Assembly: GCA_963169515.1 (NCBI GenBank)
Contig: CAUJEF010000007.1
Coordinates: forward strand, 2,024 to 66,023
Length of the DNA stretch: 64,000 nucleotides
Reading direction: 5' to 3'
Source of the DNA: Bdellovibrionota bacterium
GTDB taxonomy: Bacteria > Bdellovibrionota > Bdellovibrionia > Bdellovibrionales > JAEYZS01
Numbering within the stretch: the first letter of the stretch is position 1; each line of letters opens with the position of its first letter. Position numbers: made by a program. Positions 15,001-18,000 of the stretch are shown piece after piece.

Positions 15001-18000
15001 GCCCATTGAGGTAGCAACGCCAAAAGCAGTAAAAATTTTTACATCGCCGCCACCTAGAGCTTTAATTAAAAAAAGCGGAAGCGTTATGGCAAGCGCTAAC
15101 CCCCCGGAATAAAGCGCGTTCAAAAGCCCGCTTATTCCCCAAAAATAGACTGTATGAACGACCCCCAAACCAAGGCAAAACAAAAACACCCAATTATGAA
15201 CTTTACGCTTCATAACGTCGTCAATTGTCGCTAAGCCTAGAATGACAGACGGGACAACATAAACCATCACTTTACCACCCAATCGGCTCTGGAGCTTTTT
15301 TTGCCTTTTGTATGAACTCAGAGCCTGTTGTTATATGAACTTCGATTCTGGCGCCCAAGCTGGGGCCAGCGTTTCTAAAAACCTCTGGAGGTTTTTTGAA
15401 AACCCCTCCAATAATGAAGATCGCTAATGCTAATAACAGTACAAGCTCTGTGGTCATGTTGGACTAATCCCCAGAAGAAAAGCTTTGAACGCTATCATTG
15501 ATGGACCCCATTTTGGTTTCGATCATTGATTTAATTTTGTCTTTGAACACGATTACAACAGCGACAACGACGACCAGTAATAAAATATACTCTGTCGCAC
15601 CTTGAGCTGATTCATCTTTCCACAGACGTTTGAATGTATTTTTAAGTTGTTTCATATTGAGTCCTCCTCTATGGAAACTTATCGGTGAATAAGTGAGCAA
15701 TGTTTAAGCCTAAGTGTTGATTTTTAGACGGCATTTAACTAAAAAATCTCATTTTGAGACACTTTTTGATAAAAGCTCCTGAAAGTCCTGTAAACAAGAT
15801 CGACAAAGAGGCTCGGATATTCCGTTTTTGCAATAGAGGGGATTGGAGCCCCCCCTTGTTCTAAGTCGCGCTCCTCGTCGGAGTGATTAAAATGGGGTCA
15901 TTAAAAACTGGTCCCCTTCGTTGTTGGTACGTCAACCTGGTTGCTCCTTAACTTAATTGTCTTCCTTGTAAAAACGAGTTCCGCAAGGCGCGATGCTCAC
16001 AGTAGTGAGCGGCGCGGTCTGAGGACTGTCCGAGATTTTTACAAGGAAGACAATTAAGTTTAAGGAGCACCAAATCTTTCTTTTCCAACGACCAAGTGGG
16101 CCCGTTTTTGAAATATTAACCCTGATATCTTCCAGAACAAATATTGCCACGCAATGAGCCTTGCCAGCAGGGTGATTTTTTTATACCTTCGTTCGCATGC
16201 AAAAAGAGTTTTTTAAAAAAACAGAGAAAGCTTACGGTGGAGAACTTCTCAAGAAGCGAAAGGGCCGTATTGCGGGGCGACCAGTCGTCACCAAGCAAAC
16301 AATGCATTTGGTGCTTAGATCTTCCGTTGCAAAGGGCAAATGGTCATTTTTAGAGCCAAAAAATAAAGAAAACATTCGAATTATTTTGCGCAAATTCGCT
16401 GAAAAATATGGGGTGAAGCTTCTCCACGGAGCCAATGTCGGCAACCATATTCATTTGGAAATTCAACTTACCAACCGACATACCTATAAACCGTTTATTC
16501 GCGCCGTCACCGCAGCTATTGCAATGAAAATAACTGGTGTCAGCCGTTGGAAAAGCAAAGAAGACGTTGGAATAAATAAGTTCTGGGATTTGCGTCCTTT
16601 TACCCGGGTGGTGGTCGGATGGAACGCTCGATTGTCATTAAAAGATTACATTAAAGTGAATCACCTGGAGGCGAAGGGGTTCAAGCGAGACATTGCAAAA
16701 GTTTTTATTCAACGCCAGCGTGGTTTATTGCAATCTGGCTAGCACAACTTAGCTAGCACAACCTAGCCGGCACGATCCCAACCAGCTTATTCTTTGCTGT
16801 TCTGAAAATTCATCACTTGGCTTCCAAAGAACACAACAAGCGCAATTACGATCGCGGCGATAACCAAATATTTAAAAAATTGACCGAAAGACATGGGTTC
16901 ATCCTTCGGAATCTCTGCAGGTTTTCTGTCCTCGGTCACGACAGGTATTTTTTTTGCAGTTCTTATTTCATTGGAATCCACTTTGGCCGCGATGCCAGAG
17001 ACAGCCGTGGCGGCTTGCTTTTTTTTCTGTTCGCCGGGGACGGGAATGTAGCGAGATCTATTCCCCCCGCCGACCCGTATAGTTTCATCAATAACAATAA
17101 TTTTTCGGCTTCCCCTGGAAATTCCTTCGGAATCAGCCCCAGCAGCATCCTTTTTTTCCTCGCCCCCGGCGTTGGCTGCAATCGAGCGTCTATTCCGCCT
17201 TCCAGATCCGGAGCTAAAAAAGCCATCAGATCCGCTACCCCCGCTGATGTTTGAGGCTGAGTTGCTAGAGTTAGAGCCATCATGATCCCCATTTTTGTCT
17301 TTTGTATTATTTGGGTCACCGCTGCCATCAGGGTTGTTAGCCTCACCAGATCCGTCCGTTCCGCCTGATCCAGCGCCCGCCCCGCCAGCACCTATTTGGG
17401 GATCGTCACAATTAACTCCGGCAGGAAGATTTCCAGGAAGCTGTCCGTAAGTCAGCGCACATTCCAGCTGTGTACCGACAATGTTTTCACCAAAGAAGCG
17501 AAAAGCAGAGCCAAACTTAAATAAAACACCGGTGATCAGCGCGACAACAATAAATAAAATTAAGACGTACTCAAGTGCCGCTTGACCCTTTTGATTGCTC
17601 GCGAGGTTGTTGTTTTTAGAAAATTGGTTTTCCACATAATCTATTTCGACATTTAAAAGTTAAATATTTAATAGACAAAGGTCCAGGTCATCGAGCAACG
17701 ACTTATTCAAAAAACGGAATAAGTACTAATATTTATAAATATGTTTCGTACACTTGTAAGCTTCTTTTTTGTGGCTAGCCATTGTTTGGCAACAGAACCT
17801 GCTCAATCTTCGCGGGGTCGGGGCGACGCTCAAATTAAGAGCTTAGAGGCTCTTGCACAAAAAAGACCACACGACAAGTTTATCAATCTTAAGCTAGCGG
17901 ATATTTATTATAAAAAGAAAAATTGGGACAAGGCACTTGCTTATTATAAAATTGCAAATACGAACTTGAACGTGGCCGCACTCGAAGGAATTGTGAAGTG

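Follow-up and report, generated by a model that had tools for sequence, protein, structure and literature searches.

Several described families of bacterial repeats resemble, in part, the element reported here. REPINs are extragenic hairpins that carry no gene, can fold as single-stranded DNA (ssDNA) and contain a variable paired region with compensated changes (PMC3116915, PMC8049555), properties which the present element shares. According to the same accounts REPINs have conserved ends and a variable middle, whereas our element has a conserved tip and a variable base; it does not consist of two inverted conserved REPs around a variable spacer, although its permuted relatives do form inverted doublets, as REPINs do. 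The marks of the REP/RAYT system are a Y1 transposase of class 2, with the signature Y-x-x-x-N-P, and a GT[AG]G tag at the foot of the hairpin (PMC6006769). In contrast, the copy alignments of our element contain no such tag, no RAYT is linked to it across genomes, its stem takes in host flanking sequence, and its range crosses phyla.

Two other groups are recognised by their terminal inverted repeats (TIRs). Ends of the kind known from TIRtrons (TIRYT) and TIR repeat families (PMC3733652; subclass 2.1, PMC6006769) occur in one subfamily of the element, in genomes G212, G213 and G216, but they are limited to that subfamily, and the TIR scaffold also carries other tips or none. Bacterial MITEs such as ERIC, RUP, NEMIS and YPAL are 70-300 nt long, share their TIRs with an insertion sequence (IS) and lie beside coding sequences (PMC3733652). 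All of this holds for the element in the genome under study and in genome G263, but its conserved interior is common to elements with unrelated ends or with no shared ends.

In subfamily g55 a structured motif, TwoAYGGAY (RF01731; PMC2864571), takes the tip position on the same TIR scaffold, but its sequence differs; the element does not have the two AYGGAY loops and gives no match to RF01731, which only the sibling tips match. Flavo-1 (RF01705) was rejected, as it gave no match on the element (in searches that had no positive-control match either) and its consensus, as printed in the supplement of PMC2864571, is different. Ssn nucleases are small enzymes that read widespread ssDNA hairpin repeats, the SRM/NTS hairpins (PMC11893778). 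Template-switch (quasipalindrome) mutation generates reverse-complement copies and perfects and extends inverted repeats (PMC5941160, PMC8794818), much as in the stems described below, but is presented there as a general process, not tied to one mobile module with stems of 20-75 bp.

No published description of the element was found in the literature searched, the coverage of which was incomplete. What is new is that the module is pan-bacterial, exists in two permutations and has been captured by transposon ends unrelated to one another. On balance, the evidence leans towards a mobile hairpin of the REPIN/MITE class, non-autonomous and without a gene, that is built from the inside out, with a conserved tip module and a disposable long stem. 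The preliminary description of the locus as a REPIN/ERIC-like mobile hairpin was right as to class, although the element does not qualify as a REPIN.

The element of the window and its copies in the genome

The window is the whole stretch of 64,000 nucleotides of a Bdellovibrionota genome that was analysed. The hairpin previously reported at positions 15939-16068 is real: it folds better than shuffled sequences (z about -9.7 on the plus strand and -11.8 on the minus strand, with 0 of 200 shuffles as good) and has perfect arms of 25 nt; no other of the 15 inverted repeats found in the window is long and perfect. The extent of 120-130 nt given earlier was too short, as the element continues on both sides into terminal inverted repeats (Table 1), which in the aligned copies begin with AAAACTGGCCCAC. 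The conserved core also stood, albeit at a smaller size than first claimed, since the part kept in all variants inspected is an internal-loop module of about CGAGTT / CTGTYYGAG. The outer pair of the core covaries weakly (C-G 60, C.A 12, T-A 5, T.G 5, C.T 2), and the sheared G.A register of the core is therefore a putative one. The element and the neighbouring Y1 gene (15903-16742) lie inside a tad/flp pilus cluster, with the region of the prepilin peptidase on one side and a TadE-like gene on the other.

Table 1. Parts of the element and its neighbouring gene, in positions of the window
Feature	Position	Strand	Description and basis
Whole element	15903..16109	+	207-nt imperfect palindrome, gene-less, MITE-like in this genome as judged from copy alignment, ends and folds
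Left terminal inverted repeat	15903..15927	+	Similar to the termini of the IS1-like element of contig C135; end motif common to the IS1-like elements of the order
Right terminal inverted repeat	16085..16109	-	Alignment of copies, ends and folds
Inner stem, left arm, copy-specific	15939..15974	+	15950-15974 perfectly complementary to 16036-16060 of the right arm
Conserved core, strand B, CGAGTTCCGCA	15975..15985	+	Invariant alignment columns, exact-pattern matches
Variable apical hairpin	15986..16020	+	Short hairpin capped by a GNA triloop in most other genomes
Conserved core, strand A, GAGGACTGTCCGAG	16021..16034	+	Invariant alignment columns, exact-pattern matches
Inner stem, right arm, copy-specific	16036..16071	+	Fold, inverted-repeat search
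Neighbouring Y1 (HUH) transposase-like gene, 181 aa; candidate mover in this genome	16197..16742	+	Pfam Y1_Tnp 29.5 bits (cut-off 23)

A blastn search of the genome recovered all eight copies named before and two further fragments, on contigs C145 and C126; at 207 nt, with eight copies and two fragments, the element is short, non-coding and multicopy, as MITEs are. Stem mismatches in six of these copies amount to 4 G.T and 8 A.C, so that the excess of G.T found elsewhere (see below) is absent here, and several copies are truncated, for which reasons the copies of this genome look decayed. Renewed Rfam searches agreed with the earlier absence of a match: no family matches either permutation of the element, and its loci give generic miRNA-hairpin scores below cut-off only. 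Four of 24 listed sequencing runs were examined for expression or strain variants; all consisted of contigs and were uninformative, one RNA run containing two short contigs, neither of them over the hairpin (contigs cannot show absence). Lone ends of the element or its partner IS, without a core, were also seen (L005:734-; G000 C79:25857, C134:709 and C115:21435), and two of these adjoin small toxin-antitoxin-like or HTH genes, by eye.

The Y1 gene of the window is one of seven paralogues at 80-83% identity, with one more distant relative in the genome. It scores 27.9 bits against the NCBIfam IS200 model (cut-off 55) and has the motifs NHIH and YIKVNH; the class 2 signature Y-x-x-x-N-P was not found in it. 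By eye, five of the seven close paralogues (on C7, C1, C84, C137 and C145) have a copy or half copy of the element within about 300 nt, the remaining two (C69, C128) have a remnant of an end nearby, and the distant one (C110) has a decayed copy, which means that every Y1 gene of this genome has a copy or remnant within about 350 nt. This proximity cannot be explained by chance.

Range of the core module and candidate movers

Within Bdellovibrionales, a covariance model, with which only 29 candidates per genome were scored, found the element at E<=1e-4 in 60 of 151 genomes, belonging to 29 of 69 genera; the figures first reported were 45 genomes and 26 genera. An exact core pattern was matched in 17/384. 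Inspection of 20 weaker matches of the model showed the CGAGTT / CTGTYYGAG pair to be recognisable in all of them and the rest to be variable.

The earlier label 'order-wide' proved too narrow, since the arrangement seen in the window, here called the open form, also occurs in Coriobacteriia and a circular permutation of it is pan-bacterial. The open form was found in at least 121 metagenome stretches, 80 of which were examined and fell into 63 flank clusters with a G+C fraction of 0.40 to 0.72. Ten proteins neighbouring the metagenome copies were looked up, of which five are on record and two are named, from Eggerthella lenta and a Clostridiales bacterium. The exact core is present in 32 of 251 Coriobacteriia genomes, in up to ten copies, with no control matches. 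The permuted form, in which the two core strands are swapped and a short hairpin closes the other side, was found in at least 127 stretches of the species collection. The 80 matches listed come from Pseudomonadota, Spirochaetota, Patescibacteria, Bacteroidota, Bacillota, Actinomycetota, Nitrospirota and Myxococcota, and include a Bdellovibrionales genome. These two arrangements together mean that the module is an internal loop, closure of which is possible on either side. Three viral contigs carry the permuted form; the open form was not found in viral contigs or in five other genomes and no convincing case was seen in plasmids, and a permuted query against phages gave chance-level matches only.

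Two further arrangements were observed. In G384-G388 (L186-L217) permuted repeats of about 190 nt stand as inverted pairs around 0.9-2 kb of variable cargo genes and resemble small composite transposons, and in Eggerthella-like genomes (L663, L673) copies are nested, one element lying within the tip of another.

In view of the situation in the present genome, the Bdellovibrionales-type Y1 could be the cognate enzyme of a REP/RAYT-type system, binding the folded core as ssDNA and moving it. All seven close Y1 paralogues and the distant one lie near a copy, half copy or remnant, and Y1 enzymes are known to act on ssDNA hairpins (PMC6006769). Across the order, however, this association disappears: the element is present in 30 of 82 genomes with this Y1 and in 30 of 69 without it (p=0.41), one of 30 Y1 loci carries it (the locus of the window) and none of a further 38 does, and no Y1 gene was seen among 125 and 109 neighbouring ORFs in two sets, or adjacent to the permuted doublets of five genomes. 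Together with the lack of a GT[AG]G foot, this makes a REP/RAYT-type system rather unlikely. The link to Y1 proposed before is thus strong in this genome and absent in the order. The IS1-like transposase described below does no better, the element being present in 22 of 57 genomes with it and 38 of 94 without it (p=0.87); both p-values are rough, as kin genomes are not independent. In these queries 19 of the 60 carrier genomes have neither transposase, and since neither tracks the element across the 151 genomes, both were rejected as its general mover.

Bdellovibrionales-type Y1 proteins, with YIKVN or YILLN in place of Y-x-x-x-N-P, occur in 82 of the 151 genomes, with up to about 20 diverged paralogues in each (L421-L442), and no repeat was identified around them outside the genome studied here.

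Ssn-like GIY-YIG nucleases were also considered and are not supported. By eye, the SRM search pattern given in PMC11893778 is unlike the core of the element, and most carriers hold only long GIY-YIG proteins, small frames being found in few of 25 genomes. A small frame consisting of a single GIY-YIG domain was seen near a permuted copy in one case, at a distance of about 250 nt (L624, G387 C5:179837-180315).

Stems, strand asymmetry and genomic position

The stem had been described as wholly different between genomes yet complementary. Complementarity was confirmed, with 2921 of 3060 columns being Watson-Crick pairs in the 79 of 84 Bdellovibrionales copies that have stems of at least 15 columns, but stems also differ between copies inside one genome: arm identity is 0.95 within a copy (56 stems) and 0.43 between copies of one genome (106 pairs). 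The arms therefore do change together, as the term 'freely covarying' implied, but this is better explained by copying of one arm onto the other, host flanks included. In G212 the far arm reproduces, in inverted orientation, the final 20 nt of an NHL gene, the C-terminus of which is kept in G214 and G217 where no element is present. In G223 it is an inverted copy of 30 nt of tatC, judged from the G223 sequence alone. The stems of G212 and G215 differ at one orthologous site, where the far arm in each genome fits that genome's own synonymous codon at the gene end (14 and 8 nt). Of four copies checked next to a tRNA, three hold repeats of its 3' end, of 8, 5 and 4 nt; the fourth holds none. Gene ends reach at least 6 nt into the stem at only 7 of 84 loci, three of these ORF ends being possibly spurious. 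Much of the stem is borne by the element in some genomes (G222, g55), as in G222, where a stem consensus is shared between copies, implying that much of it travels with the element.

Among five Ralstonia strains carrying a doublet of the permuted relative, all ten variable stem pairs are compensated, several by transversions, and three of these separate strains that have 14 differences in 2433 bases of flanking genes (both by eye). Such compensated differences can also arise by swapping of whole hairpins between copies. Reverse-complement copying, with perfection and extension of inverted repeats, is what template switching is described to do (PMC5941160, PMC8794818), and the inverted copies of gene and tRNA ends in the stems indicate that the covariation is largely templated copying and not evidence for an RNA; the caution of the preliminary description, that palindromes pair by construction, was well placed. 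Behind tRNA-Gln in genus g7, a different folded element (L310, L313, L317, L319, L320, L324, L325) is closed by the tRNA 3' end in inverted copy and sometimes ends in a direct copy of that end.

Copies follow closely upon stop codons and the 3' ends of tRNAs. In 34 of 93 cases the neighbouring ORF ends between 13 nt outside and 8 nt inside the end of the stem, 31 of the 76 copies for which a neighbour was called on each side are placed between convergent genes, and a T-tract follows the core on both strands. No neighbouring gene is enriched, the neighbours being mixed housekeeping genes (125 of 156 ORFs in one set, all 109 in another).

Sites differ in occupancy between relatives. G013 carries the element where the near-identical G016 has a 56-nt spacer, related forms of which occur in several other genomes, suggesting that its arrival went along with replacement of the spacer; orthologous sites are also empty in two Eggerthella relatives. 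Shorter alleles in Ralstonia were rejected as empty sites, as they are deletions. No exact pair of an empty and a filled allele was found among the congeners compared, which were too distant or rearranged, so that no insertion was observed as such and copying at insertion is not separable from copying afterwards.

The apical loop and the stem mismatches both distinguish the two strands. GNA triloops cap 46 of the 84 copies of the open form and 57 of the 91 permuted ones, the reverse pattern TNC being found in 2 and 0. Both GNA triloops and G.A pairs in tandem form stably in ssDNA, and GNA is a DNA-type loop. On the GNA strand, G.T outnumber A.C mismatches by 66:18 (in 16 genomes, with the reverse in 2) in a set partly selected with the RNA model, and two sets chosen by pattern agree, with 43:4 in 46 stems and 92:16 in 67 stems after 2 and 10 short stems, respectively, had been dropped. 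At sites with a gene end on one side, by simple ORF calls, the GNA strand runs antisense to that gene in 33 cases and sense in 8, a further 14 loci having gene ends on both sides and 24 on neither; the excess of G.T is kept in the antisense class (28:8). tRNA 3' ends are abutted by 6 of 45 loci in one set and 0 of 40 in another, two more cases having been seen, and all eight of these copies, some of them orthologous, are antisense-oriented. Strand-biased deamination could also give an excess of G.T. Pairing that is specific to one strand, and mostly to the strand antisense to the abutting gene, points to ssDNA.

This asymmetry bears on the view that the hairpin is a structured RNA selected on the transcript, as a bidirectional terminator, a 3' stabiliser of mRNA or an RNase III site. 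The position behind gene ends, often between convergent genes, and the T-tracts would suit such a role, and G.T wobble fits RNA as well. However, the better-pairing strand is the antisense one at 33 of the 41 one-sided sites, with the wobble bias persisting there, the triloops are of the GNA type, and sites are empty in close relatives. The terminator and RNA readings of the preliminary description are weakened accordingly, and we regard selection on a transcript as improbable.

Terminal repeats, transposon partners and a proposed origin

The ends of the element in the present genome also bound a 1.1-kb insertion sequence on contig C135 (L004, G000 C135:5920-7022), pieces of which occur on four more contigs. 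Its transposase scores 54.8 bits (E 1e-14) against NF033558, with weak matches to zinc-ribbon and HTH pieces; as this is below the IS1 family cut-off of 100, the IS is called IS1-like. The family is present in 57 of the 151 genomes of the order, with a conserved end motif. In G263 the element likewise has IS1-like ends, and an IS of this family is found 7 nt away from one copy. TIRs are thus common to the element and an autonomous IS within one genome, here and in G263, and by its structure the element is a putative MITE in both. By eye, no clear direct repeat (target-site duplication) was seen at the ends of the element or of the IS. The IS copy on C135 contains a folded insert with one AYGGAY-type loop between the stop codon and the end, with a weak rsmX-clan score.

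Other partners have other ends. The subfamily of G212, G213 and G216 has a different end repeat, which also flanks an intact Y1 gene with the motifs NHYH and YIYRNP; on sequence grounds, this Y1 element is a TIRtron as defined in PMC3733652. The g55 subfamily shares its TIRs with a TIR-flanked Y1 gene (L420, L419), a 111-aa piece of which scores 48.6 bits against REP_Tyr_transpos (cut-off 80). The tips of the TIRtron scaffold are interchangeable: it carries the element's core, a TwoAYGGAY-like structure (40.2 bits in g55, cut-off 43, E 0.0019) or no tip whatever (L361, L366, L369, L373, L377, L381, L387). In G375, G223, G214, G187, G189 and others the copies show no evident outer ends in common, and the stem is private to each copy.

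That the element is an ordinary MITE of the IS1-like element, its core being inert filler, accounts for the matching ends here and in G263 and draws on an IS that is widespread in the order. Most carriers, however, have other ends or none, 38 of the 60 positive genomes are without the IS in this query, and inert filler would not stay conserved across phyla in two permutations; as a general account this explanation is refuted, and we consider it most improbable. The least probable reading, a binding site for a conserved host ssDNA protein acting in priming, repair or supercoiling and multiplied passively by recombination, would suit a 15-nt internal loop conserved pan-bacterially in either polarity with no linked mobile gene, but patchy presence, low copy numbers and turnover of sites between congeners are traits of mobile DNA, no candidate protein emerged, and the positions listed for three single-contig genomes, with origins not determined, give no clear replication-strand bias.

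A mobile hairpin built from the inside out could work as follows. The tip module would fold on one particular DNA strand when this is single-stranded, and its stable fold may promote intramolecular template switching during DNA synthesis, by which one arm is copied onto the other and the stem is extended outward until coding sequence is met. Where the stem takes in the end of a transposon, the corresponding transposase could spread the copy as a MITE, as may have occurred with the IS1-like element here and in G263 and with the Y1 TIRtron in G212, G213 and G216. A trans-acting ssDNA enzyme, most likely of the HUH/Y1 type, or a host protein would read the module, and such a reader would account for conservation and spread where no ends are shared.

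More speculatively, and with much less confidence, we suggest that the module is a minimal self-propagating ssDNA element. One widespread enzyme would read either permutation in trans, land it behind stop codons or tRNA ends and write the stem as an inverted copy of the adjacent DNA during insertion; landing at a transposon end would create a new MITE, and TwoAYGGAY would be a sister module. If true, this would provide bacteria with a general way of forming MITEs and long palindromes.

For the study of MITEs, the finding means that one interior can be common to families whose ends are unrelated, and that such families may originate through inverted copying. For the discovery of RNA motifs it is a warning that near-perfect covariation of long stems can come from DNA copying, and that motifs of unknown role, such as TwoAYGGAY, occur in the same type of palindrome. 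A folded motif of about 15 nt that is kept in at least eight phyla, in two permutations and with no linked gene, implies a common reader, for the finding of which the module provides a concrete substrate and Eggerthella a cultured carrier.
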